In this document: positions 1 to 48,591 of the stretch, one piece after another
Numbering within the stretch: position 1 is the first letter of the stretch
Layout: each line of letters begins with the position of its first letter
NCBI GenBank assembly: GCA_028865035.1
Contig: JAGWLB010000003.1
Span: 2,247 to 66,246, forward strand
Direction: 5' to 3'
Length of the DNA stretch: 64,000 nt
DNA from: Patescibacteria group bacterium
GTDB taxonomy: Bacteria; Patescibacteriota; Minisyncoccia; Phycocordibacterales; UBA9973
Position numbers and translations under genes: made by a program
The notes under the pieces: generated by a model
What the model saw: the letters and a program-made list of their open reading frames with translations, nothing else
The model's database searches: none
What the model was told of the DNA's origin: nothing

Positions 1-597
1 CCCAGTGACCAGAGTTAATTGTCCCATTTATTTGCTCAATATTACTAAACCCTGTAGTTGATAATAAATCTTTCTGCCAACCCTTGAAAGTAAATTTAAA
101 GTTACAAGATTTATCCTGTAAAGTATCGTCCACTCCACTAGGTAATGTTATGACAAAGCTCCACACTGGAGAACTAGAATAAGCTTGTGGCGTGGTTTCA
201 AAACTAGAAAGGGAACCATTGTATACTGATGTATTATCCATACTAGCATCTAGGCTTAGAGCATTACATAAGTCTGTGTCGCCAGTCATATCTGTGACTC
301 CTGATGTGTATTGGAAATCCAGACTTCCGTTATTTGTTATAGTTGTTGATATAGGTGAGGAAGAGTCACCTTTAGAAAGTGTAGACGTAAAATCTGTAGA
401 TGGGTTCAGATGAAAAATAAGAGTACCAGCTGTAAAAGTATTCCCACTCGCAGTAGCACTTGAACTAAAATATGCATAAGTATAATTTACAGTGAAGATA
501 CTTCCAAAGATTGACACGACCATAAAAATAACTAAAAACTTTTTGAATTGTTTTTTTAAATTAGGAAAATATTTATTTGGATTTTTATGTATTTTCA
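1..597 (-). CDS. TasA/camelysin-like exported protein with a SipW-cognate signal peptide. Partial: the C-terminus lies beyond the window edge
   Basis: Reverse-strand ORF from ATG at 597 runs off the window: MKIHKNPNKYFPNLKKQFKKFLVIFMVVSIFGSIFTVNYTYAYFSSSATASGNTFTAGTL. The 'AYFSS-x5-GN-F-AG' segment after a TM helix is the typical SipW-dependent signal-peptide pattern. The gene overlaps the sipW-like stop by 13 bp. It is missing from the ORF track because it has no stop within the window. Confidence 0.5.
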
Positions 598-1136
598 TCT
601 GATAATTTTTCTGTAGTAAATTTATTTTTTTCACTTTTTATCTTTTTAACTTCATTTCTTATCTTCCTCATTTCATCATAAATCACAACTGCAGCGGGTA
701 CGATGATGATAAGCATAAGACCAATAGGTTTCTTTATGAAATTTATAATGTAACCAAGATAGGGGATGGAGAATAAGACTCTGCCTGTGACTTCTTTTTG
801 TGGAGTTTCTGCACTATCTTCGGCATTATTTGCATCACCTTTAGTCCTATAAATCATATTACCTTCTACAGCTCTTTCTTCTGCTATACGGTGTGTGGTA
901 GGTATATCCGTCTTAGTGTTATCACCAAAAGTAATAATATCTCCTACTTTGTAACTTGATTCGGGCTTTACTATAACTACACTTCCAGTGTGTATCGTAG
1001 GTTCCATTGATCCTGAAAGAACAGCTAGTGTTTTTATATTCCCAGTCACTGGTATTAAAGATACGACCAAAATTATTCCAATAAATATTATGTAGGACAA
1101 TATAATATAATAAATTATTTTAAATAATTTCTTCAT
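585..1136 (-). CDS. sipW: Signal peptidase I, archaeal/SipW type (S26B)
   Basis: 183 aa with an N-terminal TM helix, the SGSMEPT catalytic-Ser motif, downstream His, and a C-terminal TM plus basic tail. It sits between two genes that carry TasA-type signal peptides. Confidence 0.7.
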   Translation of the reverse strand: MKKLFKIIYYIILSYIIFIGIILVVSLIPVTGNIKTLAVLSGSMEPTIHTGSVVIVKPESSYKVGDIITFGDNTKTDIPTTHRIAEERAVEGNMIYRTKGDANNAEDSAETPQKEVTGRVLFSIPYLGYIINFIKKPIGLMLIIIVPAAVVIYDEMRKIRNEVKKIKSEKNKFTTEKLSDENT

Positions 1137-1218
1137 ATTTTAATAACAAGCATTATAAATGCTTTATTCCCATGCCGACCCTAAGGTCAGCAGGGGTAAA
1201 AACATATAATCTAAATGA

Positions 1219-2859
1219 TTACTGAGCGATAGTGATAGTTAGATCTGTGTTTAGAGAAGCACCTTGGAATGTGTTGTCTGTAGATGGACCATCCACTTGA
1301 ACACCCATTATAAGCTGCTTTTGTTCATTTGAGTTTAGTCCGATAGGTGCATTAACAATTGGAGAAAGAGCTAGATCTTGAAGATCAGCATATCCGTTTC
1401 CATTTTGATCTGTACCGTTTATAAGACCAGTGACTGGACCACCTAGGAAGCCAAATGTGTTTACTGAGCCAGAAACTTGGTCAGAAGGATTTTGATCACC
1501 CCACCAGTTACTCTGACCATTAACTGCGGTTGCTGTGCCATTAGAAATACCAGGCATTACATTGTCTGCAAGATTATTATGATTGATGACAATATTAGAG
1601 AAAGTATTATCTTCTATTCTTACTCCAGCTGCATCTGTATTACCTTTATGATCTACAAGATTACTGATATCGTTATAAGTAATAGAAGCATCAGGAGTAT
1701 TACCCTCAAGTCCAACAGCATGAGACCACAAACCTTCTAGGTCAGAAATTGTATTATTTTTAAATACAAGATTGTCTAAATGACCTGTATGAGTTGAACC
1801 TTGTCCATAACCAACTAAGATACCATAAGCTCCGCGTCCTTCTGTCGCATTTGTATATGGTGATGTTGTATGCCATGGATTTGTGCTTGCTTTTATATTT
1901 GAAATAATATTATTTTCAATATCAACTCCTGTGATTATTCCAGTTCCTGTACTATCTCCTATATATATACCTTTTGCAGAAGAACCTGAATTTAAACCTT
2001 GAACTAGAGTTAAATTACCAACCTTAGTTATAGTATTTCCAATTATAGTATATCCGTTAAATGTACCTGTAGTGCCTGGTTGTATAGATATAGCTTGTGC
2101 AGATCCAGTAGGAAGTGTAGTACCTATATCATGTATTACATTATCTTTAATGGTTATATTATCTGCTCCACTATTGATATTTATACCATATCCAGCAGCC
2201 GGATCAGAAATGCTCAATCCTTCAATAGTTACATTACTTGCAGTAACATCAAATGGAATTGTACTTGTAGATGCTGTACCTTGTGTTGAAGCAATTGTCA
2301 TAGGATATGTTACAGGAATTGTAGACATACCTTCCCATGTAGAACTGTAGTTGCCAGGAGCAACACAGACCACTTTTCCACTATTTGCAGAGTTAGTTGT
2401 TGCATCACTAAGCTTTGTACCTGAAACTGTTACATCACAACTTGTAGGAGCCACATAAGCGCCGATAGTTGCGCCTGCACCACCTTGAAGAAGGTTTGAA
2501 CCACCTAATGTAAGTTTTGTAATACGAATTTGTTTACCAAATCCAGCAGTACCTGTATTCACACTACTAATTCCAATCTTTGTAGCATCTACAGAGCCAG
2601 TGTTCTTTAGCCACACACTTGAGACACTAGGTGTACCACCTGGAGCCATATTTGAAAAATTCCAAGATGCACTTTGTGAACCTAGCCATCCATTTACTGG
2701 AGTGCCATTACTGTCTTTTGCTATTGCAAGATTAAGAGATCCTGCTGTGAATACATTACCTGTTGCAGTAGCTGTACTACTAAAGAATGCACGTGTAGCA
2801 CCTATCGCACCAACTCCAACCAAACCAATAATACCTAAACTTAATAAAATCTTTTTCAT
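1219..2859 (-). CDS. Secreted parallel beta-helix (pectate-lyase-like fold) protein with a SipW-cognate (TasA-type) signal peptide
   Basis: N-terminus MKKILLSLGIIGLVGVGAIGATRAFFSSTATATGNVFTAGSLNL. The middle region has many N-x-I/V-x-x-N repeats (NITIKDNVIHD, IENNIISNI, NNTISD, YNDISN, NIVINHNNLADN), which are typical of right-handed beta-helix proteins. Confidence 0.6.
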   Translation of the reverse strand: MKKILLSLGIIGLVGVGAIGATRAFFSSTATATGNVFTAGSLNLAIAKDSNGTPVNGWLGSQSASWNFSNMAPGGTPSVSSVWLKNTGSVDATKIGISSVNTGTAGFGKQIRITKLTLGGSNLLQGGAGATIGAYVAPTSCDVTVSGTKLSDATTNSANSGKVVCVAPGNYSSTWEGMSTIPVTYPMTIASTQGTASTSTIPFDVTASNVTIEGLSISDPAAGYGININSGADNITIKDNVIHDIGTTLPTGSAQAISIQPGTTGTFNGYTIIGNTITKVGNLTLVQGLNSGSSAKGIYIGDSTGTGIITGVDIENNIISNIKASTNPWHTTSPYTNATEGRGAYGILVGYGQGSTHTGHLDNLVFKNNTISDLEGLWSHAVGLEGNTPDASITYNDISNLVDHKGNTDAAGVRIEDNTFSNIVINHNNLADNVMPGISNGTATAVNGQSNWWGDQNPSDQVSGSVNTFGFLGGPVTGLINGTDQNGNGYADLQDLALSPIVNAPIGLNSNEQKQLIMGVQVDGPSTDNTFQGASLNTDLTITIAQ

Positions 2860-3103
2860 AACATTTTTTATTAAATATTTTAAATTTATATTTAAAAAAT
2901 TTAATAACTTATTTTATATATTAACTAATAATAATTATTATTTTACTGCTAAAAATGAACAAAAAAATACCCAAAATAATAAAATAGGTAAAATCTTTAA
3001 CGACGAAGATATTCAATTTAAGTTTATACCTATCCACACATATGTCAAGAATTAGAAATATATTTCATATTATGTCAATAATAAAATTTGCTATACTAGA
3101 AGT

Positions 3104-4318
3104 ATGCAAAAAAGTGCTGAAAATTTATTCCTTCATGCAGATGGCGACTCATTCTTTGTGGCCTGCGAGGTGTCGCAGCATCCTGAGTATATTGGTAAGC
3201 CAGTAGTAGTAGGTGAGGATCGTGGCATAGCAGTAGCTATGAGCTATGAAGCGAAGAAGTTAGGTGTGACTCGTGGTATGCCAGTATTTAAAATTAAAAA
3301 ACAATTCCCTAGTGTAGTTATACTTCCACACCATTTCGACTTATATAGGAAAATCTCAAAAAATGTTCACGATATACTGCTATCATATCTAGAAGAAGTT
3401 GAGGTGTATAGTATCGATGAATGCTTTGCTACTGTGAAGCAGTCAGATATTCGTTTTGCTGGAAGTGCAGATGAATTAGTAAAATCTATAAAAGATGAGA
3501 TACAAAATACTTTAAATGTGACGTACTCTTTTGGCCTAGGTCGCACTAAAGCACTTGCCAAGACAGCTTCCAAATTAAATAAACCAAATGGAATGGTTAT
3601 ACTTACGAATATTAAAGATGAAGAACAAGCACTTAAGAAAACTTCTATCGATGATATCTGGGGTATAGGTAGACGTACCGTCCCACGCTTAAGGGATATG
3701 GGTATGAAGACAGCATATGACTTCGTACACTATAATAGTGACTATATAAAAAAGTATTTTTCTTCACCATTGTTCCATCTTCAGCAAGAATTATCTGGTT
3801 CGTCTATATATGAACTTGACCCCAATGCTGACCCCAGAGATCAGAAGTCTATACAATCTACAGCTACATTCAAGCCTTCAACGAATGATCTACAAATAAT
3901 TTTTACTGAACTTTCATCGAATGTCGAGAGAGCCTGTGAACATGCTAGAAGCCTAGGTCTTATGACTAACTTCATTTCGTTTTTTATTAAAAATACTGAT
4001 TTTATCCATCATGTAGGTAGTAGCCACTTAACTCTTTATACGACTGATCCAGGAATTATATTGAATAAATTAGAGCCACTATTATATGAATTGGTAAGTA
4101 AATTAAAAGATAATGAAAAAATACGTTCGACAGGGATTACCTTACATAATTTACGTAAATATGAAAATGTCCCTAGAGATCTATTTGGTGTACAAGATGG
4201 ATATGAAGCTAAAAATATTATAGAAGAAGTAAGCGATAGAATAAGAGAGAAATTCGGTCACGATGCTCTAAAGAGGGCATCGTCACTGAAAGTGGCAAAG
4301 AAAGAAAATAGGAGCTAA
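3104..4318 (+). CDS. dinB: DNA polymerase IV, Y-family translesion polymerase
   Basis: LFLHADGDSFFVACE..KPVVVG..GIAVAMSYEAKKLGV..GMP and a DECF motif. Length of 404 aa is typical for the family. Confidence 0.85.
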   Translation: MQKSAENLFLHADGDSFFVACEVSQHPEYIGKPVVVGEDRGIAVAMSYEAKKLGVTRGMPVFKIKKQFPSVVILPHHFDLYRKISKNVHDILLSYLEEVEVYSIDECFATVKQSDIRFAGSADELVKSIKDEIQNTLNVTYSFGLGRTKALAKTASKLNKPNGMVILTNIKDEEQALKKTSIDDIWGIGRRTVPRLRDMGMKTAYDFVHYNSDYIKKYFSSPLFHLQQELSGSSIYELDPNADPRDQKSIQSTATFKPSTNDLQIIFTELSSNVERACEHARSLGLMTNFISFFIKNTDFIHHVGSSHLTLYTTDPGIILNKLEPLLYELVSKLKDNEKIRSTGITLHNLRKYENVPRDLFGVQDGYEAKNIIEEVSDRIREKFGHDALKRASSLKVAKKENRS

Positions 4319-4377: not shown

Positions 4378-4917
4378 TTACGCCGCCATTTTTTCGACTG
4401 CAAATTCAATTTTTGATGGAAATGATTTTTTCCATGTATGTTTATGGTTGAACTTCCAGGCAAGCATTCTGCATAATATATCACAGGCTTGGTTCAAGTT
4501 ATTCTCTTTAAATAGTATTTTCCATGCTTTTGACCCAACCTTTTTTGTGATAAAAGGATGTTTGATAATCATTAGAGTTATGATTTCATCAATTGTAAGC
4601 TCAGAATTTTTCTTTATACCGTTTTCAAGGTAGCAAAATTGAAATAAAATATTCCACCCCTGAAAATGTTTATATTCCCATAATCTTAATAAGAATTTCT
4701 CCTTATTTATTTCAGGAATATCTTCACATTTCTTAGGGTATAAGTGATGTCTATTTGCTTTGACACGATCTAAGCCAATAACCGGCATGTGTTTAATGTT
4801 ATAAGTATCCTTACCATTAGTATATAAAAATGGATGAAAAATAACTTTTGTTGGACCCTTGGTTTTTTTGTGCTTGGTTCTTTGCATAATTAAATTTTTT
4901 AGATTAAAAATATACAA
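4378..4917 (-). CDS. Hypothetical protein, possibly an HNH-like nuclease
   Basis: 179-aa basic protein. It has an RHHLYPKK segment followed by Asn and His at spacings loosely compatible with an H-N-H motif. No strong match recognised. Flanked by AT-rich spacers. Confidence 0.3.
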   Translation of the reverse strand: MYIFNLKNLIMQRTKHKKTKGPTKVIFHPFLYTNGKDTYNIKHMPVIGLDRVKANRHHLYPKKCEDIPEINKEKFLLRLWEYKHFQGWNILFQFCYLENGIKKNSELTIDEIITLMIIKHPFITKKVGSKAWKILFKENNLNQACDILCRMLAWKFNHKHTWKKSFPSKIEFAVEKMAA

Positions 4918-5101: not shown

Positions 5102-5620
5102 ATGCCAATTATAGGGAGAATTAGATCTATTCCATATGAATACATCTTAGAGAATATGTATGTAGGAACTAAAGGTTACATATATCTTGAAAAAATAATA
5201 TTAACGCGTTTTGCAGTCTTTATACATTTGGATACACATGTCGTATCCAAATTTAACAAAAATATCGATAAACGCTATTTTTTACCCATCAAAAGAATTT
5301 CAAATGGCCTTACTGAATTAGATTTCGATTTAATCTGGTCAGATACAGATAAGATTGGTTTAATGCTTTATCCAGAGTATGTGTATTTTGATTTAATTGA
5401 AGAAAATCAAGATTATCTTATTTTCTTCATATATGAACATAATGTTTTAGATAAAGAAAAAAAACTTTTAATTTATAATGATAAATTAAAAGTTTTAAAT
5501 ACACAGCTACAAATTTTAAAAGCTGAAGAGAATTTTTTAATCGCTGCGAAAGTTAGAGACGAAATTGAAACATTAAAAAACAAAGGTTTAAATAGTTTAT
5601 TTTCACCTAAAAAATTATAA
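5102..5620 (+). CDS. Hypothetical protein with a C-terminal UVR (UvrB/UvrC-type) motif
   Basis: The C-terminus EENFLIAAKVRDEIETLKNKG matches the UVR consensus (AA-x2-L-x-FE-x-AA-x2-RD-x-I). A TTGACA -35-like hexamer lies at 5035-5040 upstream. Confidence 0.35.
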   Translation: MPIIGRIRSIPYEYILENMYVGTKGYIYLEKIILTRFAVFIHLDTHVVSKFNKNIDKRYFLPIKRISNGLTELDFDLIWSDTDKIGLMLYPEYVYFDLIEENQDYLIFFIYEHNVLDKEKKLLIYNDKLKVLNTQLQILKAEENFLIAAKVRDEIETLKNKGLNSLFSPKKL

Positions 5621-5651: not shown

Positions 5652-6086
5652 TTATTTTATATACCCATTAGCACCTACTAAGATCGCAGTATCATCTCTA
5701 AGGAATCTTTCTTGGTTATTACTGTCATCACCATAGGACTTCTCTATGAAATATAATTTTTCTCCTTCTTTTACTACATAGGTTTGAGAATGATATTCTG
5801 CATTTTGTGAATTAAGTGTAATTTGAGTTGAACCATCCGCTAAAGTATTTTTTGTAACAGTAAATCCGGTCAAAGCTTTTTGAGTATCTGTATCAAATGT
5901 TGGTGTAGATATAAGATGTGCGTAAGGGAATAGAGGAGAATTAGAAAATAATTCTGGGGTTGTGGTATTTTGACTTGCTGGAGTCTTAACATTATCTTCG
6001 TCATTCTTACTATGCTCGTTAATGTAAACTAAAAACCCTATAACCAAAATTGCAATTACTAATATAATTAATTGTTTTTTCTTCAT
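5652..6086 (-). CDS. Membrane-anchored exported hypothetical protein
   Basis: N-terminal signal-anchor (KKKQLIILVIAILVIGFLVY) followed by a soluble domain. No recognisable family. Confidence 0.4.
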   Translation of the reverse strand: MKKKQLIILVIAILVIGFLVYINEHSKNDEDNVKTPASQNTTTPELFSNSPLFPYAHLISTPTFDTDTQKALTGFTVTKNTLADGSTQITLNSQNAEYHSQTYVVKEGEKLYFIEKSYGDDSNNQERFLRDDTAILVGANGYIK

Positions 6087-8253: not shown

Positions 8254-9102
8254 TTAATCTACATATTCTTCATATTCGTACATTATTCCAGGTAAAGTTT
8301 TTTTCGCCTCTTTGTCAATAATGTCTTTTTCCTCATTAGTTATTTTAGATAATTTATAAAGGGCAAATACAACCAAGGATAATACAGAACATATTAGTGC
8401 TAATTCTCCTAATTTGACAGTATTCATTATCATTACTGATTTGAATTGTAGTATTGCGCTTAATAAGCCTACAGTAAAAATATACGGTATTGTTCTGTAC
8501 AAATTGTTGCCATAACAATTCTCGCTGGAAGTAATCCCTTTTTTATTTATTGTCGCTAACATTACAGAGCCTGTTACAATTGGGGCCCAAATATACCAGC
8601 TTTTCCACAATACATATATTTGGTAAAAGAAAGAAACTATAAAAATAGTAATTGCAATTACTATCAATGTCTCATATAACTTTTCTCCTACAACAGCTTT
8701 TTTAAGGGTGTATTCTTTTGCTTGTTCTTTAACAAGTAAAAAGTTGGTTATTATACTCAATACTAAAACAATACCTACTCCTAACCATCCAAATTTATTT
8801 GGATTTGCATGCATTAACATGGTTGCAAAGATTGTTATCTCGAAAGCTAAATTTGCAAGTATTAGTTGCAAAATCAATTTTTTGAAGTAATGATGTTCTA
8901 ATAGTAGCTGAAAGATATTCGCATACAATATAAGATATCCTATAAATGTAAACGAAATTGTAATCAAAAATATAGCAGTGTTGGCTTTTGCTAAAAATAA
9001 TGCTAAAAATATTCCTAATATGTTTAGCATTCCAAATGTCGTAAAAAAGAAATTTATTAATTTTTCTTTAATAGATGGAGTGGGGTTACTAATCTTTTTC
9101 AT
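8254..9102 (-). CDS. Polytopic integral membrane protein, hypothetical
   Basis: 282 aa with about 7-8 hydrophobic helices. No family recognised. Confidence 0.4.
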   Translation of the reverse strand: MKKISNPTPSIKEKLINFFFTTFGMLNILGIFLALFLAKANTAIFLITISFTFIGYLILYANIFQLLLEHHYFKKLILQLILANLAFEITIFATMLMHANPNKFGWLGVGIVLVLSIITNFLLVKEQAKEYTLKKAVVGEKLYETLIVIAITIFIVSFFYQIYVLWKSWYIWAPIVTGSVMLATINKKGITSSENCYGNNLYRTIPYIFTVGLLSAILQFKSVMIMNTVKLGELALICSVLSLVVFALYKLSKITNEEKDIIDKEAKKTLPGIMYEYEEYVD

Positions 9103-10294: not shown

Positions 10295-10519
10295 ATGCAT
10301 ATTATGAGAAAAGAAAAATCATTATTTATTATAGGTTTATGGATTATTTTGTTGCCCCTGTCTGGTTTTCCGTCTTCTTGGAAAACGCTATTCTTTTTTA
10401 TTACTGGTTTACTCATCATCTACATTTCATACCTTTTTTACATGCAAGCAAAGAAAAATGTACCTAAAGATTTAAATCAAAGTAAAACCTTCATAGATAA
10501 CATAAGTAATGGCGAGTAA
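10295..10519 (+). CDS. Small two-TM membrane protein, hypothetical
   Basis: 74 aa with two hydrophobic helices. Overlaps the next gene start by 11 bp. Confidence 0.25.
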   Translation: MHIMRKEKSLFIIGLWIILLPLSGFPSSWKTLFFFITGLLIIYISYLFYMQAKKNVPKDLNQSKTFIDNISNGE

Positions 10520-11738
10520 AGTTATCAAAATGTTATCAAAAAAAAATTTAAAAATATTTTTATTAGTAACCCTCGCATTTATAATATGTGGGGTTATTAT
10601 TTATTTTATATTTTTTAATAGCATAAAATATACTACACATTCTGCTATATCGTCTCTTGAAGATGTACCACAAAGCAGTAAGCCCAGTGACATAACAATT
10701 CCACCTATATCTCAGCCACCCACTCCAGTTCCTGTGACACACATACAAACTCCAAATTATGTTAAAGCAGTATATCTATCAAGTTGGGTTGCCGGATCTC
10801 CAAAATATCGCGATCCTATAATAAAACTTATAGATGATACTGAATTAAATTCAATCGTGATAGACATAAAAGATTCTACTGGTCGCATAGGTTATATAAC
10901 AGATAATCAAGATTTAAACAGAATTGGATCTGTGCAAGGCCGCATACCCAATATTCGTAGTCTTATAAATACTTTACATCAGAAGAATATTTATGTTATC
11001 GGACGTATTGCGGTATTCCAAGATCCGTATATGACAAAAATAAAACCAGAATGGTCAATTGTGAAAAATAGCGATGGAAAAGTTTGGAAAGATAATAAAG
11101 GTTTATCTTTTTTGGATCCAGCAAATCAGGATGTATGGAAATATATTGTATCAATTGCTCTTGATGCTCATTCTGAAGGTTTTGATGAAATTAATTTTGA
11201 TTATATAAGGTATCCTTCTGATGGCAATATCCAAGATATTAATTATCATTTAACTCCAGGAAAAACAAGGTCTGATAATTTAGAGAGCTTTTTCAAATAT
11301 TTATCTTTGGAATTAAAGAAAGATAACATTACTATGTCCGCTGATCTTTTTGGTTTAACTACAACTACGAATGATGATATGGGAATAGGTCAATTGTGGG
11401 AGAAGACATTACCATATTTCGATTTTGTTTCTCCTATGGTTTATCCATCTCATTATCCGAGTGGTCAGTATGGATTTAAAAATCCAGCAGATCATCCTTA
11501 CGAGGTTATTTCAAAAGCACTACAAAGTGCAATAAAGAAGACTAAAGCAATGCAAGATCAAGATATCCATAAAATACGTCCATGGTTGCAAGATTTTGAC
11601 TTGGGAGCAGTTTACACAAAAGATAAGGTACGTTTAGAGATGCAAGCGGTATATGATAGCGGTCTTAATTCCTGGATGTTATGGGATCCAAAGAATAAAT
11701 ACACACCTTCTGCACTTAAACTTGATATCAATCAATAA
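10509..11738 (+). CDS. Putative extracytoplasmic glycoside-hydrolase-like TIM-barrel protein (COG1306/DUF4015-like)
   Basis: N-terminal TM anchor and Pro-rich linker. Body has KAVYLSSWVAG..IIKLIDDTELNSIVIDIKDSTGRIGY...IGRIAVFQDPY...FDEINFDYIRYP, the pattern seen in the uncharacterised GHL family. Confidence 0.45.
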   Translation: MASKVIKMLSKKNLKIFLLVTLAFIICGVIIYFIFFNSIKYTTHSAISSLEDVPQSSKPSDITIPPISQPPTPVPVTHIQTPNYVKAVYLSSWVAGSPKYRDPIIKLIDDTELNSIVIDIKDSTGRIGYITDNQDLNRIGSVQGRIPNIRSLINTLHQKNIYVIGRIAVFQDPYMTKIKPEWSIVKNSDGKVWKDNKGLSFLDPANQDVWKYIVSIALDAHSEGFDEINFDYIRYPSDGNIQDINYHLTPGKTRSDNLESFFKYLSLELKKDNITMSADLFGLTTTTNDDMGIGQLWEKTLPYFDFVSPMVYPSHYPSGQYGFKNPADHPYEVISKALQSAIKKTKAMQDQDIHKIRPWLQDFDLGAVYTKDKVRLEMQAVYDSGLNSWMLWDPKNKYTPSALKLDINQ

Positions 11739-18324: not shown

Positions 18325-19113
18325 TTATCCTATTCTAATAATATTACGATTCTTTTCAGCTATTAAAGCAATTTTTTCCATAATCTTAACAGCTTCAAGT
18401 GGGTACTTACCTATTGCTGATTCTTCAGAAAGCATTACTCCATCAGCTCCATCTAATATTGCATAGGCAACATCTGATACTTCTGCTCTAGTCGGCGTAG
18501 GGTTTTCTACCATAGAAAGTAACATTTGAGTTGCAACTATGACCATTTTATTTTGTTTTTTTGCTTCTATGATAATATGATGTTGTACGAAGGGTATTTC
18601 TTCTATTGGAAATTCATTTCCTAAATCTCCACGGGCTATCATTATTGCATCTGATACCTCTATTATTTCGCTAAGATTTTCTACCGCTTCTTTTCTTTCA
18701 ATTTTAGCTATAATTTTCTGATTACCATTATTATCTTTAATAAAATTTCTTAATTCTATAATATCATTTTTAGAACCTACAAATGATAAGGCAACATATT
18801 CAATATTGTTTTTAATGCCAAAAATTAAATCATCCTTATCTTTTTCTGTAAATATTTTAAGATCACCATTGAAGTGATGACCTGATATATCTTGCGTTCG
18901 GGGTCCAGACAAATCTTGAATTATAGGTATACTTACATTATGTTTATACGATTCTTCTCTAATACTATTTATGAATTGTAAATGTTCATCATGGGTACCC
19001 CAAGAAAAATTTAGACGAGCCATACTCATATTATGAGTAATTAGATTAGATAAAATATCTTTATTTTTACTTGCTGGTCCTATAGTTGCTATAATTATTG
19101 TTTTTGATTCCAT
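18325..19113 (-). CDS. pyk: Pyruvate kinase with the A (barrel) domain only; the B lid and C-terminal domain are missing
   Basis: [74 protein letters not shown] are all pyruvate-kinase signatures. The protein is only 262 aa, and [25 protein letters not shown] replaces the ~100-aa B domain. Confidence 0.7.
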
Positions 19114-21659: not shown

Positions 21660-23339
21660 TTATTTATTTATAAATAATTTTGCTAATCGAATATCTTCAA
21701 AAGAAAGTTTGTATCCCTGTTTTTCAAGGATTAATTTAATTGGAGATAACTTACCAATCTCATCATTTTTCAAGGTACGGTTCGCTTTATTTACAATAAT
21801 AATATCTTGTTGTTTAGGTTTAATATGATTAATCTTTGTTTTTGGAAATTTATCTACAATTTGTTCAATATGATAAACTATAGTACTTTTAGTTAAACCC
21901 CTTTCTTTCGCTATCTTGTTAATACTCATACCTTGATTCAATAAATTCATTGTAGTAATTATTGTTGGAATTTTATCTGATGTCTTTGTTTTATTATTAT
22001 TTTTATTAATTACTCCGCCCATACGTACGATAAAAGAATGTTCTAATTTTTCTTGTTCACTTTTACTTAATTTACCAAAGTAGACAAGTTCATTCTGTGT
22101 ACTTTCATTACGAAGTTCTTTGTCGAATTGAAGTACCTTAGGATCTACTCGTAAGGCATCTGGATTAAATCCTACTAATTTTATTCCAGTCATAGTTTTT
22201 ACTCTTGAAAGTGCTACATAACCCATACCATACGCAAATGTATGAGTAAGGTCTATCTCTGCGTTATCAAGTGACATACCCTGACTTTTGTGTATTGTAA
22301 TAGCCCAAGCTAGACGTATAGGAAGCTGACTAATAGAAGCTTTATTTTTACCATTTTCTTCTATTGCCCAAGTTTCTTTGTGGGCGTATATTGTCTTACC
22401 ATTATAGAGCTCTATAATAGGAGTATTATCGGACGGCAGAAAATCTATAACTTTACCTCTAGTACCGTTAACATATCCTTCTTCAAAATTATTTTTTATA
22501 CACATTATTTCAGCTCCAACTTTAAGATGTAATTTCTCACTAGCAAGACAACTTTTTCTTAATATTTCAACTAATGGCTCGGGCCCAGTTGATGACATAT
22601 AAAATACCTTCTCATCAGTTTTTAAATTCGAAAGTTCAGTATTGTTTTCTATATCAACATTCGTATTATGGGTATATAATTTTGTTGGAATAATGTTATT
22701 CGGCAGCTCTGCATTTAATCGATTTTTTAATTGTTCATAATGCAACTCTTCCACTGTGTCACTGCGTATTGCATTTAAAATCGATGTCAGTTCTTCGTCT
22801 ACTTGTCTATGTTGTTCTGTAAGATAACAAATGGCCGGATTCATTATACGCCAAGCTTCACTATATAAGACCATATCTTTCAAATTTGTTTCATTTGAAC
22901 GATTTATAGGAGGTAATTGAAAAAAATCCCCAGAGATAATTATTTGCAAACCCCCAAAAGGTTTATCGCTTCTCTTGAACCTGCGACATACTCGTTCTAT
23001 TATATCTAGTCTATGTGCGTGAAGCATCGATACTTCATCGATAATAAGCACCCTAGCTTTCTCAAAACGTTTCCATAAATATTGTTTACCTTCTAATACC
23101 TCTAGATCATACTCATCTATTTTATCTTTTATACCAATTCCAGCCCAACCATGTATCGTCATGCCATTCATATGAGTAGCAGCTATGCCTGTTGAAGCTG
23201 TAATAGCCACAGGTATATCGTGGTTTTTGAGATATGATATGTATTCATTTAGAAGATAAGTTTTACCACTTCCAGCACTACCAGTAAGGTATACATTTAC
23301 TCCTGTTTTCATAATAGCAAGTGCTTGTTTTTGAGTCAT
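21660..23339 (-). CDS. Pif1-family (RecD-like SF1B) DNA helicase with a C-terminal helix-turn-helix domain
   Basis: Motif I LTGSAGSGKTYLL, motif II IIDEVSMLHA, motif III ISGDFFQLPPI, and a late SQGMSLD. The C-terminal ~100 aa contain SINKIAKERGLTKSTIVYHI, an HTH. 559 aa, 22 bp downstream of lexA. Confidence 0.75.
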   Translation of the reverse strand: MTQKQALAIMKTGVNVYLTGSAGSGKTYLLNEYISYLKNHDIPVAITASTGIAATHMNGMTIHGWAGIGIKDKIDEYDLEVLEGKQYLWKRFEKARVLIIDEVSMLHAHRLDIIERVCRRFKRSDKPFGGLQIIISGDFFQLPPINRSNETNLKDMVLYSEAWRIMNPAICYLTEQHRQVDEELTSILNAIRSDTVEELHYEQLKNRLNAELPNNIIPTKLYTHNTNVDIENNTELSNLKTDEKVFYMSSTGPEPLVEILRKSCLASEKLHLKVGAEIMCIKNNFEEGYVNGTRGKVIDFLPSDNTPIIELYNGKTIYAHKETWAIEENGKNKASISQLPIRLAWAITIHKSQGMSLDNAEIDLTHTFAYGMGYVALSRVKTMTGIKLVGFNPDALRVDPKVLQFDKELRNESTQNELVYFGKLSKSEQEKLEHSFIVRMGGVINKNNNKTKTSDKIPTIITTMNLLNQGMSINKIAKERGLTKSTIVYHIEQIVDKFPKTKINHIKPKQQDIIIVNKANRTLKNDEIGKLSPIKLILEKQGYKLSFEDIRLAKLFINK

Positions 23340-25789: not shown

Positions 25790-27322
25790 ATGTTAAATAT
25801 AATAGACAATTTTCTAAACAAAATAACAATGTATCGTCTGGTACTGTACTTTTTGATTTTCTTATTATTACTTGCCACTGGATTTAGCGCTATGGGAATG
25901 CTTCCCTTTAGTCCATTAATGCTCCTATTTGGAACTGCACTTTTGCTAATTATCGGCTGGGCTGTAAATTTTATTTTCTCAGAAGTATTTAATGCGCCTA
26001 CAAACGTAGAATCATTTTATATAACAGCATTGATTCTTGCTCTTATTATTACACCACCACAATCTTTTTCAGATGTTTCTTACTTGATGTTTATATTCTG
26101 GGCAGCACTTTGGGCAATGGCTTCAAAATACATACTAGCAATAGGTAAAAAGCATATATTCAATCCAGCGGCTTTCGCGGTGGCACTAACAGCTTTGACT
26201 CTTGGTCAATCAGCAAGTTGGTGGGTAGGTACGGGTTCAATGTTACCATTTGTATTTGTTGGTGGATTTCTTATTACTCGTAAAATTAGACGTACAGATC
26301 TAGTTCTTTCTTTTATATTTATTTCACTCCTTGTAAGTATTTTTATGCATGCTCATAGTTTTGGAGATATATTTAAATTTGGTAGTCGTGCTATAAAAGA
26401 CTCTCCACTATTTTTCTTTGCTTTTGTAATGCTTACTGAACCACTTACAACTCCACCTACGAAATATCTGAGAATTGGTTATGGAGCATTAGTTGGAGCA
26501 ATTTTTGACCCAATGGTTCATTTAGGTTCAATGTATTCAACACCAGAGCTTGCTTTAATTGTAGGAAATGTATTTTCTTATTTAGTTAGTCCTAAATTAA
26601 AATTAATGTTGCGTTTTAAATCAAAAACACAAATTGCTAAAGATACATATGATTTTTCTTTTGCATCGAGTAAAGATGAAATACCATTTAGGCCTGGCCA
26701 ATATTTCGAATGGACATTACCTCACGAACATCCTGATAGTCGTGGTAATAGAAGGTACTTCACCATAGCCTCTTCTCCCATATCTGAAGAAGTACATATT
26801 GGTGTTAAATTTTACCCTAAATCTAGTAGTTTCAAAAATGCTCTTTTAAAAATGGAAAGAGGTGATAAAATTGTTGCTTCACAACTTGCTGGTGATTTTA
26901 TAATGCCTAGAAATAAACGTATAAAACTTTGCTTTATAGCCGGAGGCATAGGAGTAACTCCTTTTGAAAGTATGATTAATTATATGCTAAAGCGAGGACA
27001 AAAAAGAAATGTTGTAATGTTTTACTCAAATAGAACAGTAGATGATATCGCTTATATGGAAACATTCGAAAAAGCTAGAACAGAACTAGGTATAAAAACG
27101 ATCTATGCTTTATCAGAATTAGATTCAATACCTTCAGATTGGAAAGGTGCACGAGGGTTCATTACTGCGGAAATGATCGCAAAAGAAGTTCCTGATTTTG
27201 AAGATCGCATTTTTTATATATCAGGACCACATTCTATGGTTAGCGCATTTAATGAATCATTGTCTAGAATGGGAGTAAACCAATCTCAGATTATAACTGA
27301 TTTCTTTCCTGGTTTTGCTTAA
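25790..27322 (+). CDS. Membrane oxidoreductase: N-terminal polytopic NqrB/RnfD-like domain fused to a C-terminal FNR-type FAD/NAD(P)-binding module (NqrF-like, no ferredoxin domain)
   Basis: The N-terminal ~270 aa have about 8 TM helices, with HIFNPAAFAVAL and MLTEPLTTPPT resembling the RnfD/NqrB motifs (QNPFNPAM / ILTDPVTASTT). The C-terminus has RPGQYFEW, the RRYFTIASSP FAD-binding R-x-Y-S/T motif, and the FIAGGIGVTPFESM NAD(P)-binding motif. Confidence 0.65.
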   Translation: MLNIIDNFLNKITMYRLVLYFLIFLLLLATGFSAMGMLPFSPLMLLFGTALLLIIGWAVNFIFSEVFNAPTNVESFYITALILALIITPPQSFSDVSYLMFIFWAALWAMASKYILAIGKKHIFNPAAFAVALTALTLGQSASWWVGTGSMLPFVFVGGFLITRKIRRTDLVLSFIFISLLVSIFMHAHSFGDIFKFGSRAIKDSPLFFFAFVMLTEPLTTPPTKYLRIGYGALVGAIFDPMVHLGSMYSTPELALIVGNVFSYLVSPKLKLMLRFKSKTQIAKDTYDFSFASSKDEIPFRPGQYFEWTLPHEHPDSRGNRRYFTIASSPISEEVHIGVKFYPKSSSFKNALLKMERGDKIVASQLAGDFIMPRNKRIKLCFIAGGIGVTPFESMINYMLKRGQKRNVVMFYSNRTVDDIAYMETFEKARTELGIKTIYALSELDSIPSDWKGARGFITAEMIAKEVPDFEDRIFYISGPHSMVSAFNESLSRMGVNQSQIITDFFPGFA

Positions 27323-27327
27323 AATAT

Positions 27328-28281
27328 TTAAGCAGTAAGTCTCTTTTTTACTTTTTTATTAAATTTATACCACTTCCATTTTATAACACACCAAGTATTA
27401 CAGTATGCTTCGCCATATGGAGGGTGCTTTATTGAATCTGTTTTGAGGCAATTTTCACAACAAATAAAATGGTCATGACACATAAGGTTGGCACAGTTCA
27501 CATAGTGCTCACTCGGAGTGCCACACTTTGTGCAGTGGCCAATTATCTCATGTTTATTGGGATCATCGAAATTCATAACAATACGTTTATCGAAAACATA
27601 AAGAGAACCCTTAAAATTCTCTCCTGGGTATTTTTCCATATAACTGACTATTCCTCCATCGAGCTGATAGACATCTTTAAATCCTTCCCTCTTTAATAAG
27701 CCAGAAGCTTTCTCGCAACGTACTCCACCAGTACAGACTGTGACTACGGTCTTGTCTTTCAAGTCTTCTATTTTTTTAATATTTTTTTTGAGGTCACGAA
27801 AATTATTTAAATCTGGAAAAGCTGTTCCTTCAAATTTACCAACACGAAGTTCGTAATCATTGCGCATATCTACAACATGAAATTCTTTGCCTTCCTCATA
27901 CCATTTCTTTAGCATTTCTGGTTTTAAATGCGTACCAGTAATTTGATTTGGGTCTATATCTTCTTCTTCGCCTAAATGCAGAGATACTATTTCTTTTCGA
28001 ACTTTTACAGAAAGACGTGGAAAAGCGGTACCGTCTGATGTACCTTCACTTATTTTCCAATGAGTATCTGCAAACCTAGAATCAGCTTTCATTATATCCA
28101 TATACTCACGGCAAGCTTCATCTGTACCCTCATATGTGCCATTTATACCCTCTTTTGCTATGATCATACGGCCTTTCATACCAAGGTGCTTGCATAGGTC
28201 AAATTGAGCATCCCTGAGCCCTTTGGGGTCATCTATATGGACATATTTATAGAAAAGGATAATAGTGTGTTTGTTTACCAT
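27328..28281 (-). CDS. trhO: Rhodanese-domain tRNA uridine(34) hydroxylase (TrhO/YceA, UPF0176) with a Cys-rich C-terminal extension
   Basis: IILFYKY..I.DP, the rhodanese CTGGVRCEKASGLL active-site loop, and a C-terminal CTKCG...CANLMCHDHFICCENC segment. Confidence 0.7.
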   Translation of the reverse strand: MVNKHTIILFYKYVHIDDPKGLRDAQFDLCKHLGMKGRMIIAKEGINGTYEGTDEACREYMDIMKADSRFADTHWKISEGTSDGTAFPRLSVKVRKEIVSLHLGEEEDIDPNQITGTHLKPEMLKKWYEEGKEFHVVDMRNDYELRVGKFEGTAFPDLNNFRDLKKNIKKIEDLKDKTVVTVCTGGVRCEKASGLLKREGFKDVYQLDGGIVSYMEKYPGENFKGSLYVFDKRIVMNFDDPNKHEIIGHCTKCGTPSEHYVNCANLMCHDHFICCENCLKTDSIKHPPYGEAYCNTWCVIKWKWYKFNKKVKKRLTA

Positions 28282-28299
28282 ATTCTTTTAATATAACAA

Positions 28300-28743
28300 T
28301 TATTTCCTATATTTACGAGTGCGCCATTTGTCGGCTATCTTTACACGGGTTAGTGAACGTTCAAGTTCTGATTCAAAATGTTCAAAATCAACAATCTCTT
28401 TATTTTCAGCTTGCTTGCTGAGTTCTTCTGCCTTCTGCTTCGCCTTAGCTATCATTTCGTCTGTAATATCTGCAACGTGTTCCGCAAAGTCAGCAAGTAT
28501 AGCGCAAGTGGTCACATCACCATCTTTTTTTACTTCAATAAATCCACCGACGACAGCCATCGGTATGTGTTCACCAGAAGAGATAGCAACAACATCACCA
28601 GATGATAGTTCTGCTATAAGTGGGACATGGTCAGCCAAAACTGATATTTCCCCATTAGCCGTTGGGATAGTCACAGCGTCCACCATCTCATCTAAAATGA
28701 GTTTCTCGGGAGTTATTATTTTTAATTGTAATTGTTTTGACAT
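28300..28743 (-). CDS. atpC: F-ATP synthase epsilon subunit
   Basis: LKIITPEKLILDEMVDAVTIPTANGEISVLADHVPLIAELSSGDV. Last gene of the atp operon. Confidence 0.85.
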   Translation of the reverse strand: MSKQLQLKIITPEKLILDEMVDAVTIPTANGEISVLADHVPLIAELSSGDVVAISSGEHIPMAVVGGFIEVKKDGDVTTCAILADFAEHVADITDEMIAKAKQKAEELSKQAENKEIVDFEHFESELERSLTRVKIADKWRTRKYRK

Positions 28744-28758
28744 TACTATTTTAAAAAA

Positions 28759-30132
<1,374 letters not shown>

Positions 30133-36967: not shown

Positions 36968-38335
36968 TTAGTTTTGCAATGGGTCTATCATTTCAGTCTG
37001 AATATTCTTAACTTTCGCCATAACTTGCCTGCCGTATGCACAAGTAGACCCGCCTGATCCATAATATCTACAAGCAGCTCTAATCTGAGCAGTATAACTA
37101 TCTCCTACTCCACCTAAGTCTTCTAAGAATAATGCTGATGCCATAAATGCGTCTCTTGGATTCCAGGGGTCAGGAGCACTAATATTTAAAGCTTTTGCAA
37201 CACTGCTGCTTATACCATCCCAAGTTGAAGGTATGAATTGTGCCGGTCCCATAGCCCCACCCCAGCTGTATGGTCCAGCTGAAATAATAGGACAAGATAC
37301 TAGTGTTGTAGTAGGGTCACGACCTAGGGCTGTTGTAATTCTTGTGAATGGGCCAATATCTCGACTTGGTTTCATAACATTTTTAAAAGCTCTTCCGCTC
37401 TTTGAACTTACCCCAGCACCTGTTTCCATATTTGTAACATAACAAGAACCTTGATCTGTTCCTAAATTACTTTCTTGTGTAATGATTGCAAGTATAAATG
37501 CTGGTGCTACGTTTGTTATTTTTGAAGCTTCATTTGCGTATGTAAGTGCGATTCCAAAAGGAATTGCTGATGCATCACGAAGATTGAACAGTACTGCTAA
37601 AATTTCTGCCCTACGAGCTGCTTTTTCAGCCAGAACTTCTTGATAAGTTTTTTCTTTGTTTTTGCTTATAGATAATAGTTGCTGCTTAGTTGCTTCATTT
37701 CTTTGAACTTGTTGAGCTGCGGTTTCGAGCTGAACTTTTATATCAGTCTGTTGATTTTTTTGTATCTCTAGACTTTTCTTTTCAGTCTCTGTGCTATTTT
37801 TTGTTTGATTTATTTCATCTACAGAATTTTTGATTGCTAATTTTAGAGAAGCAAATGCATCTATATCTCCATATGCTTGAGACATAGTATCTTGAGATAA
37901 GATAAATTCTACTAGAGATTTATTATCTAATTCTCTGTCTTTACGTATTAACTGAGCCAAAGATTCTTTTTCTGTTTCTATTTTGGTTGTAAGACTTTCA
38001 ATTGTCTGGTTTTTTTGCACAATCTCTCCCCCTAGTTGCTGTATCATTATATTTTTGGCTCTGATATCAAGTTTTGATTTGTTTATTTGTGTAGTGAGTA
38101 TGGCAATATCTCTTGACAATGATACTGATTGACCTTTCTGTGCGTTAAGTTCTTGTTGTTTTTGTGCTATTTCTTGTTCTAAAGTTGCAAGTTCTGATTC
38201 AAGACGTGCTTTATCAGCCTGAGCAATAACTAATGCTTGGTCAGCATGTACCATAGGTATTTGGGATAAAATACCGTTAAACATAAATGCTATTATTATT
38301 ACAAAACAAAATGCATATCTGAAAAATTGTCGCAT
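36968..38335 (-). CDS. Exported coiled-coil protein with a C-terminal lysozyme-like (SLT/GH23-type) domain
   Basis: Signal/TM and a ~250-aa Q/E/K-rich coiled coil. The C-terminal AFILAIITQESNLG...GAMGPAQFIPSTW resembles the lytic transglycosylase catalytic Glu-Ser and GLMQ-x-P-x-TW motifs. Confidence 0.5.
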   Translation of the reverse strand: MRQFFRYAFCFVIIIAFMFNGILSQIPMVHADQALVIAQADKARLESELATLEQEIAQKQQELNAQKGQSVSLSRDIAILTTQINKSKLDIRAKNIMIQQLGGEIVQKNQTIESLTTKIETEKESLAQLIRKDRELDNKSLVEFILSQDTMSQAYGDIDAFASLKLAIKNSVDEINQTKNSTETEKKSLEIQKNQQTDIKVQLETAAQQVQRNEATKQQLLSISKNKEKTYQEVLAEKAARRAEILAVLFNLRDASAIPFGIALTYANEASKITNVAPAFILAIITQESNLGTDQGSCYVTNMETGAGVSSKSGRAFKNVMKPSRDIGPFTRITTALGRDPTTTLVSCPIISAGPYSWGGAMGPAQFIPSTWDGISSSVAKALNISAPDPWNPRDAFMASALFLEDLGGVGDSYTAQIRAACRYYGSGGSTCAYGRQVMAKVKNIQTEMIDPLQN

Positions 38336-48406: not shown

Positions 48407-48471
48407 CGTTTTATCCTTTTTTGAATGTACAATCCAGAATCTGCTGGAACAGTCGCAATCTTGCTAGCACT

Positions 48472-48500
48472 ATTATATCAAATAACACTCTATTTGTCAA
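48472..48500 (-). promoter_or_regulatory. Perfect consensus sigma70 promoter (TTGACA-17-TATAAT) driving the high-GC gene
   Basis: On the minus strand: tandem TTGACATTGACA, -35 at 48495-48500, 17-nt spacer, and TATAAT at 48472-48477. About 60 nt of 5'UTR with an AAGGA SD. Confidence 0.6.
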
Positions 48501-48591
48501 TGTCAAGGCTAAATGGCAAATATCGTTAGTCCATCTTTCTTTTCTAATTGGTTGATAAAATTGATCTTTCAGGCGATCGTAAACAAATATC

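Follow-up and report, generated by a model that had tools for sequence, protein, structure and literature searches.

Fibres held together by donor-strand complementation have a precedent in TasA, whose residues 28 to 38 were shown by experiment to be the donor strand (PMC9674648). The haloarchaeal tafi locus encodes a tip (TafC), an adapter (TafE), a major subunit (TafA), an anchor (TafF) and a type I signal peptidase (SPase I; TafD) (PMC11821415). The AbpX and AbpA pili and the CanA cannulae are chaperone-free donor-strand polymers that also belong to the TasA superfamily (PMC9245690; bioRxiv 10.1101/2024.12.30.630787; bioRxiv 10.64898/2026.01.04.697558). AbpX forms para-crystalline meshes, and its loci also encode tips and anchors, together with an SPase I (bioRxiv 10.64898/2026.01.04.697558). 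The surveys of these polymers did not cover Patescibacteria, apart from a remark that the phylum contains PF12389 (PMC9245690). In Clostridium perfringens, finally, BsaA forms polymers by means of isopeptide bonds, and it has been linked to genes of type IV pili (PMC11580942).

Outside Saccharibacteria, where type IV pili dominate the discussion, little is known about how CPR bacteria (Patescibacteria) attach to their hosts and exploit them. Here, we analysed a locus from a Patescibacteria MAG, i.e., from an ultra-small CPR bacterium. The generic NCBI annotation of the proteins and the existence of TasA homologues in the phylum were already known. We propose, with moderate confidence, that the locus holds a cassette that builds a SipW-processed, membrane-anchored surface appendage of the TasA superfamily via donor-strand complementation.

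Results

Gene content and conservation of the cassette

The window, i.e., the whole 64,000-nucleotide stretch of DNA that was analysed, contains the first two and a half genes of a four-gene cassette, which lie on the minus strand like all features described below. The first gene, g1 (gene A; 1219..2859), is a 546-aa ORF whose product is 100% identical to NCBI MDE2030952.1 and carries the NCBI label "SipW-dependent-type signal peptide-containing protein". It is followed by g2 (gene B; 585..1136), a 183-aa ORF (NCBI MDE2030951.1), and by g3 (gene C; 1..598), which leaves the window after its first 199 codons and whose start at 598 overlaps the end of g2 by 14 nt. An earlier note on this DNA had described this layout of a 546-aa protein, a signal peptidase and a third gene leaving the window, and the ORFs agree with it. 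The note had also invoked the logic of tapA-sipW-tasA. This held as well: an ER/archaeal-type SPase I is encoded between two proteins whose N termini match the HMM for the SipW-cognate signal (TIGR04088; cutoff 19), with 29.8 bits for g3 and a borderline 19.5 bits for g1, and the arrangement recurs in other loci. Judging from relatives, the unit comprises four genes, and the membrane-anchor gene, g4, would lie beyond the window. Upstream of g1, there is a 244-nt AT-rich spacer that is common to a divergent Y-family polymerase gene. A reading of the locus as a mobile element or HGT island was rejected: the GC content of 0.345 is like that of the surroundings, and the flanks consist of housekeeping genes.

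The order g1-g2-g3-g4 (head, SipW, TasA-like plus lamin-tail protein, anchor) recurs in no fewer than 11 distinct loci of Patescibacteria, whose flanks are unrelated (loci with this order: L001, L002, L003, L008, L009, L010, L012, L013, L017, L021, L045 and L064). The overlaps between g2, g3 and g4 amount to 4 to 14 nt, which would fit a coupling of their translation. Close relatives have another head domain at the g1 position or none at all, the interchangeable heads being beta-helix, DUF642, cadherin-like and reelin-B-like domains. A small "plain" major subunit is missing from the cassette; a long fibre is thus not guaranteed, and the product may be a short anchored complex.

The 89-nt spacer between g1 and g2 folds at -28.5 kcal/mol (z = -5.2), and none of 200 shuffled sequences was as stable. 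The fold contains a GC-rich RNA hairpin, CCCCUGCUGACC-UUAG-GGUCGGCAUGGG (1169..1196), with no U-tract behind it. Such a hairpin 3' of g1 was present in 5 of the 7 loci tested, namely, here and in L001, L002, L003 and L008, and nothing comparable was seen in L010 or L017. The spacers of these four relatives had z values of -5.1 to -5.7, and their strong hairpins differed in sequence. The best regional match to the promoter consensus (10/12), TTGACA-16-TAAACT (3021..3048), lies about 160 nt upstream of g1; the scan for promoter and terminator consensus sequences returned 17 sites, compared to 16.2 expected from shuffles. The sole listed terminator-like site falls within g3 and is not credible.

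The g1 protein and its inserted beta-helix

The g1 protein is an exported head subunit that consists of a TasA-like beta-sandwich and an inserted right-handed beta-helix. Its n-region (MKKILL...) is of the Sec type, as is that of g3 (MKIHKNPNK...), with no RR motif in either protein. The signal peptide (residues 1 to 24, MKKILLSLGIIGLVGVGAIGATRA; 2788..2859) was delimited by conservation across 77 homologues, in which A24 is invariant and T22, at position -3, is 96% conserved. The SipW cut is predicted to fall directly after A24, and this end of the signal peptide aligns with T-W-A, the site at which TasA is cleaved. The putative donor-strand segment that follows (residues 25 to 44, FFSSTATATGNVFTAGSLNL; 2728..2787) is the core of the TIGR04088 motif. 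Its residues F37, G40 and L44 are 92 to 100% conserved, and in a profile comparison with the PDB, the segment aligned with TasA residues 32 to 46. In the AF2 model (pLDDT 89.1), residues 1 to 37 are disordered and the beta-sandwich is predicted with high confidence.

The N-terminal half of the beta-sandwich (residues 45 to 135; 2455..2727) was assigned from PF12389 (residues 9 to 99), from the model strands at residues 44 to 118 and from hhalign to the g3 and g4 domains, and it closes with an invariant GGAGA...Y135. PF12389 (TasA/camelysin) was matched by g1 at 22.5 bits, which is exactly the gathering score, and by g3 at 25.1 bits, both matches spanning only the N-terminal ~40% of the model (profile positions 3 to 85 of 196). 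The C-terminal half (residues 471 to 546; 1222..1449) was assigned by alignment to TasA and by hhalign, and its last strand, NTFQGASLNTDLTITIAQ, aligns weakly with the C-terminal strand of TasA, NKYQGNSIKLQFSFEATQ. Conservation also singled out an EF-hand/dockerin-like loop in this half, GTDQNGNGYADLQD (residues 482 to 495; 1375..1416), in which D484, N488 and D492 are invariant and D495 is 97% conserved and which weakly matches an EF-hand-like DKNGDGFIDFEEF segment. We regard this loop as a candidate Ca2+ site. Among archaeal and CPR proteins of the surface-layer type, both Ca2+-type loops and beta-helix/NWWG modules occur commonly. After deletion of the helix, the best PDB matches of the g1 profile were to TasA (5of1/8aur) over collinear N- and C-terminal stretches, but with an E value of ~0.3, and phmmer with a single helix-deleted g1 sequence gave only chance matches in the PDB. 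PF12389 was matched by 19 of 27 helix-deleted g1-type sequences, and TIGR04090 was matched by neither g1 nor g3.

The inserted module (residues ~136 to 470; 1450..2454) is a parallel beta-helix of about 330 residues with the pectin-lyase fold, set inside the TasA-type beta-sandwich. Its hallmarks are a pair of invariant cysteines (Cys141/Cys165), a ladder of Asn residues and, at residues 451 to 455, the NWWG(D) motif that closes it. The structures nearest to it are those of alginate, pectate and PL6 lyases, GH87 glucanases and C5-epimerases, and a moderately conserved strip of residues (K296, Y299, Y345, E385, D409 and E416) runs along successive rungs. Both observations would suit a polysaccharide lyase, hydrolase or epimerase that is secreted freely and digests host or environmental glycans, with the TasA-like part serving just for export or as a carrier and with no polymer being formed. 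We consider this rather unlikely. Across the 77 homologues, no Asp, Glu, Lys, Arg or His is invariant in residues 170 to 445 of the helix, where the invariant residues belong to the Asn ladder, to Gly and Cys positions and to junction motifs. Moreover, no CAZyme-family HMM matched g1, the identity of the helix to any enzyme is 9 to 20%, and the adhesin PfbA and NosD score as well as the enzymes do; the best PDB profile match of g1 (E = 5.5e-5) lies over the generic helix. The donor motif and the TasA-like part are the most strongly conserved regions, which also argues against a free enzyme, and such an enzyme would leave the constant linkage to the anchor-type paralogue g4 unexplained. Most likely, the head is a glycan-binding adhesin, which we rank above a glycan-cleaving enzyme, and a sugar-binding-type head of this kind is a plausible means of attaching to other cells.

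The signal peptidase g2

The g2 protein is a SipW-like ER/archaeal-type signal peptidase I. It matched TIGR02228 at 116 bits (cutoff, 51.85) and PF10502 (Peptidase_S26) at 31.1 bits (cutoff, 22.9), and its hydrophobic segments at residues ~7 to 29 and ~134 to 155 correspond to an N-terminal and a C-terminal TM segment. Against NF046067, the equivalog model for Bacillus SipW, it reached 121 bits, below the cutoff of 190; by these scores, g2 would be SipW-like in its working but not an orthologue of the Bacillus protein. Residues S43 (SGSMEP), H82 (TTHR), D101 (GDAN) and D107 are invariant in 12 cassette peptidases. By homology, S43/H82/D101 would form the catalytic set, which is of the Ser-His(-Asp) type and not the bacterial Ser-Lys dyad; the catalytic residues of B. 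subtilis SipW are S47/H87/D106.

It seems improbable to us that g2 is the general, perhaps the only, type I signal peptidase of the organism and that its position between secreted genes is meaningless. In every cassette locus, g2 directly precedes g3 and follows one or more head genes with a donor motif, while the flanks are unrelated. It also overlaps the start of g3, one locus (L025) encodes a fusion of SipW with a TasA-like domain, and the TIGR04088 motif is confined to cassette genes. A general role would be in line with the reduced genomes of CPR bacteria and with the ordinary signal peptides of g4 described below. A search of the 64-kb window and of ~60 loci for a LepB-type ORF, which would also bear on such a role, came back empty; it used a weak query (B. 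subtilis SipS) and covered less than ~10% of a genome.

The g3 and g4 proteins

Within the window, g3 encodes a long basic n-region and signal peptide (residues 1 to 42), then the donor motif YFSSSATASGNTFTAGTL and the whole of a TasA-like beta-sandwich in which two Cys are conserved (profile match, E = 5e-21; AF2 pLDDT 86.9). A search with the single 199-aa fragment gave only 2 weak matches, and the g3 homologues were found via a profile of g3 N-domains. Relatives of full length (420 to 795 aa) continue with a lamin tail domain and then a tail that is acidic/S-T-P-rich, and 4 of 10 g3 relatives matched TIGR04088 at an E value of ≤0.12. Foldseek of the g3 domain placed generic Ig-like, FimH and chaperone-usher pilin folds at the top (E ~1e-4), with TasA missing from its first 50 matches. 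A reading of g3 as a camelysin protease was rejected, as nothing beyond the Pfam name pointed to it. The Pfam name camelysin is historical, and nothing in the locus hints at proteolysis.

Two proposals of the earlier note are modified by these data. The downstream gene, described there as camelysin/TasA-like, is TasA-like and, judging from its full-length relatives, encodes a TasA-like plus lamin-tail-domain protein, not a camelysin protease. The 546-aa beta-helix protein, taken for a substrate with a TasA-type signal, does carry that signal; it is not a mere substrate, being itself TasA-like with the helix inserted in its beta-sandwich.

As g4 lies beyond the window, its features were inferred here from relatives with 40 to 64% g1 identity. 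It is a TasA-like protein without an N-terminal donor motif that ends in TM helices: in 10 of 10 loci, the protein had no TIGR04088 match, opened at the sandwich and ended in 1 to 4 TM helices. The g4 signal peptides are ordinary AxA signals, as in other exported proteins, and one g4 gave a 14-bit, sub-threshold match to TIGR04090. In hhalign, the g4 domain matched the g1 chimera with a probability of 97% (E = 9e-11), and the alignment runs across the insertion point. Profile-profile comparisons likewise linked g3 to g1 (97.9%) and g4 to g3 (97%).

Discussion

Proposed assembly of the appendage

We propose the following course of assembly. Sec would export g1 and g3, and the ER-type peptidase of the cassette, g2, would cut both behind the conserved T-x-A. 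The cut would expose an N-terminal strand (FFSSTATATGNVFTAGSL in g1) that is homologous to the TasA donor strand and that would enter the beta-sandwich of an adjacent TasA-like domain by donor-strand complementation. In g4, a TasA-like acceptor domain that lacks a donor motif would precede an FN3 domain and TM helices at the C terminus, and the protein would therefore form the membrane-proximal end of the chain and its anchor. From a loop of its sandwich, g1 would display the ~330-residue beta-helix outward as the working head, with a glycan as the presumed ligand, and g3 would contribute its lamin-tail (Ig-like) domain along with a tail that is long, acidic and disordered. The hairpin 3' of g1 probably lifts the output of g1 relative to that of g2 to g4.

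The least probable alternative is a two-dimensional S-layer-like coat with g1 as the abundant lattice protein and g4 as the membrane tether: the high g1 expression that the hairpin suggests, the Ca2+-type loop and beta-helix/NWWG module that g1 has in common with surface-layer-type proteins and the parallel with the AbpX meshes would fit it, but nothing here indicates lateral contacts, a head that is swapped or missing in close relatives would be odd for an essential lattice protein, and the donor-motif/acceptor-only logic predicts linear chains.

Starting from the donor-strand appendage, one may tentatively go a step further. The cassette could encode a lineage-specific, undescribed attachment organelle of CPR bacteria of the Parcubacteria/Paceibacteria type, i.e., a chaperone-free, membrane-anchored donor-strand chain with g4 as the base, g3 as the spacer and g1 as the head, in which the heads would set the host surface glycan that the episymbiont binds or cuts and which would serve as a second adhesion system next to type IV pili. 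With its own signal peptidase, its membrane anchor and its swappable lectin- or lyase-like heads, the cassette is a concrete candidate for attachment. Through it, the TasA superfamily of donor-strand filaments would also take in a major radiation of uncultured bacteria, and the architecture of the cassette is new in that a large domain sits within a pilin-like sandwich and an acceptor-only subunit is TM anchored.

Comparison with known systems

The head recalls named surface proteins with the pectin-lyase fold, such as the alginate lyase 6KFN, PL6/PL9 lyases, the Streptococcus pneumoniae adhesin PfbA and NosD. It differs from them in its sequence (11 to 20% identity), in having no family HMM match and no conserved catalytic residues and in being inserted in another domain, where it is closed by C141/C165 and NWWG. 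With C. perfringens BsaA (TIGR04090), the cassette would share the principle of an exported, polymer-forming, SipW-dependent protein, whereas neither isopeptide polymerisation nor a linkage to type IV pilus genes was seen for the cassette.

AbpX/AbpA loci often adjoin an SPase I of the TIGR02228 type, as in the cassette, while cannula genes do not. A further parallel is the invariant Ca2+-type loop of g1, as Ca2+ aids the assembly of both cannulae and AbpX. In contrast, the subunits of AbpX, AbpA and CanA are small single domains of ~160 to 220 aa, and their bacterial anchors are of the SLH or LPXTG types.

Overall, the sequences suggest that the cassette is related to the Bacillus biofilm-fibre operon and resembles both TasA fibres and haloarchaeal tafi. 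Like B. subtilis tapA-sipW-tasA, it has a gene for an ER-type SPase I between those for two exported proteins with a TIGR04088 signal; the beta-sandwich of g1 appears to be homologous to TasA at both ends, and its N-terminal segment aligns with the donor-strand region. Unlike the Bacillus operon, it has a peptidase that scores under the SipW equivalog cutoff (121 versus 190 bits) and no TapA homologue, its main subunit carries a 330-residue beta-helix insertion, it includes an LTD subunit and a TM-anchored acceptor-only subunit, and its host is a CPR bacterium. It differs from tafi in that TafA is exported via Tat and the cassette signals are of the Sec type without twin arginine, in that tafi has a small major subunit and the cassette has none, and in that its head is a beta-helix and not laminin-G; no DUF5305 accessory was seen in the cassette, in contrast to tafi. 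What it shares with tafi is a locus of several TasA-superfamily paralogues with an SPase I of its own, one subunit that bears an extra lectin-type head and, as seen in 10 g4 relatives and inferred for this genome, a presumed anchor that combines a subunit-like N-domain with a C-terminal membrane span.

Gene arrangement at the window edge

At the left window edge, the minus strand carries three genes in the same direction: gene A (2859..1219, an ORF of 546 aa), gene B (1136..585, an ORF of 183 aa) and gene C, which starts at 598 and runs out of the window after 199 codons. A spacer of 82 nt separates genes A and B, and the 3' end of gene B overlaps the start of gene C by 14 nt. The gene A product is 100% identical to NCBI MDE2030952.1, recorded on a 75.9-kb contig as 'SipW-dependent-type signal peptide-containing protein [Patescibacteria group bacterium]', and the gene B product is MDE2030951.1, 'signal peptidase I'. 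On its 5' side, gene A shares a 244-nt AT-rich spacer with a divergent Y-family DNA polymerase gene (3104..4318); a promoter-like site at 3048-3021 was without statistical meaning.

The earlier note had claimed that a sipW-type signal peptidase is flanked here by two proteins with TasA-type signals. Indeed, the gene B product scored 116 against a cutoff of 51.85 with TIGR02228 (archaeal/ER-type signal peptidase I), while falling under the Bacillus SipW equivalog cutoff (121 versus 190). Alignment of 12 cassette peptidases showed S43 (SGSMEP), H82 (TTHR), D101 (GDAN) and D107 to be invariant; we take the first three to correspond to the Ser/His/Asp set of SipW. The peptidase has a hydrophobic segment at each end. 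SipW-cognate signals (TIGR04088) were detected in both flanking proteins, at 29.8 bits for gene C and at a borderline 19.5 bits for gene A (cutoff 19), and in no other ORF of the window. PF12389 (TasA/camelysin) matched gene A at threshold and gene C just above it, both matches covering model positions up to ~85 of 196 only. Thus, the HMM, catalytic-residue and motif-scan results confirm the arrangement as first read.

A four-gene cassette in Patescibacteria

A word-indexed search returned 106 homologues of gene A, most of them 39-64% identical, and all of those with a source-given name came from Patescibacteria (Kaiser-, Nealson-, Nomura- and Pacebacteria, Paceibacterota and Parcubacteria). 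To determine gene order, we looked up genomic contexts, scanned GTDB species genomes and ran HMM searches locally. The order A-B-C-fourth gene recurred between unrelated flanks in the loci L001, L002, L003, L008, L009, L010, L012, L013, L017, L021, L045 and L064 (L004, L006 and L007 duplicate L003, L001 and L002, respectively), with overlaps of 4-14 nt between genes B, C and the fourth gene. We infer that the window holds part of this four-gene cassette, the fourth gene of this genome being deduced from relatives.

In some loci the gene A position is taken by two or three paralogues, whose heads vary (beta-helix, DUF642, cadherin-like or reelin-B-like). L064, which carries the closest gene C relative on a long contig, has at this position a 327-aa PF12389 protein in which no head domain was recognised. 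A PIF1+HTH_40 helicase after the L064 cassette closely resembles the window helicase at 21660..23339; these L064 features lie at L064:4417-8578 and L064:8748-10433. In L025, a 522-aa fusion of an N-terminal SipW-type peptidase with a TasA-like PF12389 segment (L025:12442-14010) stands after three gene A-like paralogues.

Relatives of gene C encode 420-795 aa, with a signal peptide and the motif (A)YFS..A....NTFTAGTL at the N-terminus, a TasA-like sandwich in which two Cys are conserved, a lamin tail domain (PF00932, 45-54 bits) and a C-terminal tail of 90-200 residues that is acidic or Ser/Thr/Pro-rich and lacks a transmembrane (TM) segment. The window fragment matched the gene C profile at E 5e-21 and ends exactly at the linker before the lamin tail domain; its closest full-length relative, P0110, has 438 aa and 63% identity.

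Relatives of the fourth gene encode 353-529 aa with an ordinary AxA signal peptide, and the mature proteins open directly with the sandwich (V.F...PLF..N.APG). TIGR04088 was found in 0/10 of them. Past the sandwich follow a Gly-rich linker and, in several relatives (3/4 checked), an FN3/Pur_ac_phosph_N domain; the C-terminus has 1-4 TM helices and ends in basic residues. Their N-domain is homologous to the sandwiches of both gene C and gene A (profile-profile, probability 97% each), the alignments starting past the donor-motif region, that is, the N-terminal TIGR04088 segment likened to the TasA donor strand. The products of genes A and C have donor motif and sandwich both; that of the fourth gene has a sandwich and a membrane anchor but no donor motif.

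Predicted architecture of the gene A product

An AlphaFold2 model of the gene A product from a 77-sequence alignment (pLDDT 89.1, pTM 0.87) showed disordered residues 1-37, five strands at 44-118, a long beta-helix and three strands at 501-545. The protein is thus predicted to be a TasA-like protein with an inserted beta-helix. When residues 136-469 were deleted from 27 homologues, 19/27 matched PF12389, and the profile of the remainder had TasA (5of1, 8aur) as top PDB matches, weakly (E ~0.3), over two collinear stretches: the N-terminal region and the last strand, NTFQGASLNTDLTITIAQ versus NKYQGNSIKLQFSFEATQ in TasA. Moreover, the contiguous TasA-like domain of the fourth gene aligned across the excision point (profile-profile, probability 97%, E 9e-11), which lends independent support to the predicted split sandwich.

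Conservation in the family was highest in the sandwich and the sandwich/helix junctions, the top residues being A24, L44, PGG73-75, N86, R112, GGAGA126-130, Y135, C141/C165, NWWG451-454, Q521 and D523. Also among them were D484/N488/D492 of the loop GTDQNGNGYADLQD, a putative Ca2+ site resembling those of EF-hands and dockerins. Near-invariance in the helix was limited to the Asn ladder and glycines; K296, Y299, Y345, E385, D409 and E416, on successive rungs, were 66-82% conserved. This pattern is more in keeping with a binding groove than with a fixed catalytic centre, although it is also compatible with an enzyme.

The helix module, which covers profile positions ~143-455 and so contains both the Cys pair and the terminal NWWG motif, occurs in 2-13 tandem copies in giant proteins (1,000-6,800 aa) found in several phyla (P0172, P0176, P0177, P0182, P0187 and others; loci L014-L016, L018, L019). 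These giant surface proteins also carry LamG, C-type lectin, Big_2, GEVED, T9SS-tail or PG-binding domains. Because the module is re-used in this way and heads are swapped between related loci, an adhesive and modular head is favoured.

For the gene C domain (model pLDDT 86.9), the Foldseek matches (E ~1e-4) were to FimH, to chaperone-usher pilins and to further Ig-like folds, with TasA not among them. This result agrees with published accounts of an Ig-like core in the TasA superfamily, yet it is unspecific.

Hairpins between genes A and B

The spacer between genes A and B, taken as 89 nt, folds at -28.5 kcal/mol (z -5.2; 0/200 shuffles equally stable), its main element being a GC-rich hairpin at 1169-1196. 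Folding was similarly stable (z -5.1 to -5.7) for the corresponding spacers of L001, L002, L003 and L008, all of which contain a strong hairpin, though its sequence differs from one to the next; no comparable fold was found in L010 and L017. Since no U-tract follows the hairpin at 1169-1196, it is not a canonical terminator. By analogy with many pilin operons, it may be a partial terminator or an mRNA-stabilising element that lifts gene A output over that of the other three genes. A second, small AT-rich hairpin, AGCAUUUAUAAUGCUU (1148-1164, minus strand), lies 12 nt upstream of the gene B start codon.

Surroundings of the cassette

Outside these genes, the window is unremarkable chromosomal DNA of a bacterium with a small genome, with genes for glycolysis, F-type ATP synthase, aminoacyl-tRNA synthetases, MurG, FtsW and GatB and a GC range of 28-42%. 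Local GC peaks at 28001-30000 (0.42; ATP synthase beta-type gene) and 48001-50000 (0.41; GAPDH gene and GatB 3' end) compare with ~0.33 elsewhere. Four ORFs of 144-282 aa near the cassette (4378-4917, 5102-5620, 5652-6086 and 8254-9102) had no Pfam match at E<=0.001; in the one at 5652-6086, an N-terminal segment is hydrophobic. Wall- or glycan-active proteins are encoded at 10509-11738 (DUF4015 putative glycosyl hydrolase), 36968-38335 (SLT-domain protein) and 51961-53274 (M23 peptidase). The 510-aa ORF at 25790-27322 joins an NQR2/RnfD/RnfE-like membrane part to a C-terminal NAD_binding_1 oxidoreductase domain. The pyruvate kinase ORF at 18325-19113 has 262 aa, with the barrel domain matched in two stretches; typical pyruvate kinases are far longer, and the ORF may represent a truncated or split gene. 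The longest GTG-start GatB ORF (49930-51567) is overlapped at its 5' end by tRNA-Leu(taa) (51524-51608), so the true GatB start must be further downstream.

Proposed assembly and comparison with known systems

Generic NCBI annotation of the cassette proteins is already known, and PF12389 homologues in Patescibacteria were recorded by a tree-wide survey (PMC9245690). Full-text literature searches returned no account of this cassette, of a beta-helix-in-sandwich architecture or of an acceptor-only, TM-anchored paralogue in bacteria of the candidate phyla radiation (CPR). A link of the cassette to TasA is suggested by sequence motifs and by sub- or near-threshold HMM scores.

Because the cassette closely fits TasA-superfamily logic, we propose that the peptidase would cut the gene A and C products after T-x-A, that their new N-termini would complement neighbouring sandwiches by donor strand, and that the fourth protein would terminate the chain and anchor it in the membrane. 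The beta-helix would be on display for glycan binding, possibly cleavage. The filament may be a short spike, since the cassette has no small plain subunit.

The TasA superfamily forms chaperone-free donor-strand filaments (PMC9674648; PMC9245690; PMC11821415; bioRxiv 10.1101/2024.12.30.630787; bioRxiv 10.64898/2026.01.04.697558). In TasA, the donor strand is residues 28-38, and the first strand is supplied by TapA (PMC9674648). Archaeal AbpA/AbpX filament genes often adjoin a TIGR02228 peptidase, AbpX loci also encode tips and anchors, and cannulae (CanA) are further members of the superfamily, though without a dedicated peptidase (PMC9245690; bioRxiv 10.1101/2024.12.30.630787; 10.64898/2026.01.04.697558). 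The haloarchaeal tafi model comprises a tip with a lectin-like head, an adapter, a major subunit, a TM-anchored acceptor subunit and its own signal peptidase I (PMC11821415). The CPR cassette resembles such loci in having its own peptidase, a variable head, donor-plus-acceptor subunits (genes A and C) and an anchored, acceptor-only fourth protein.
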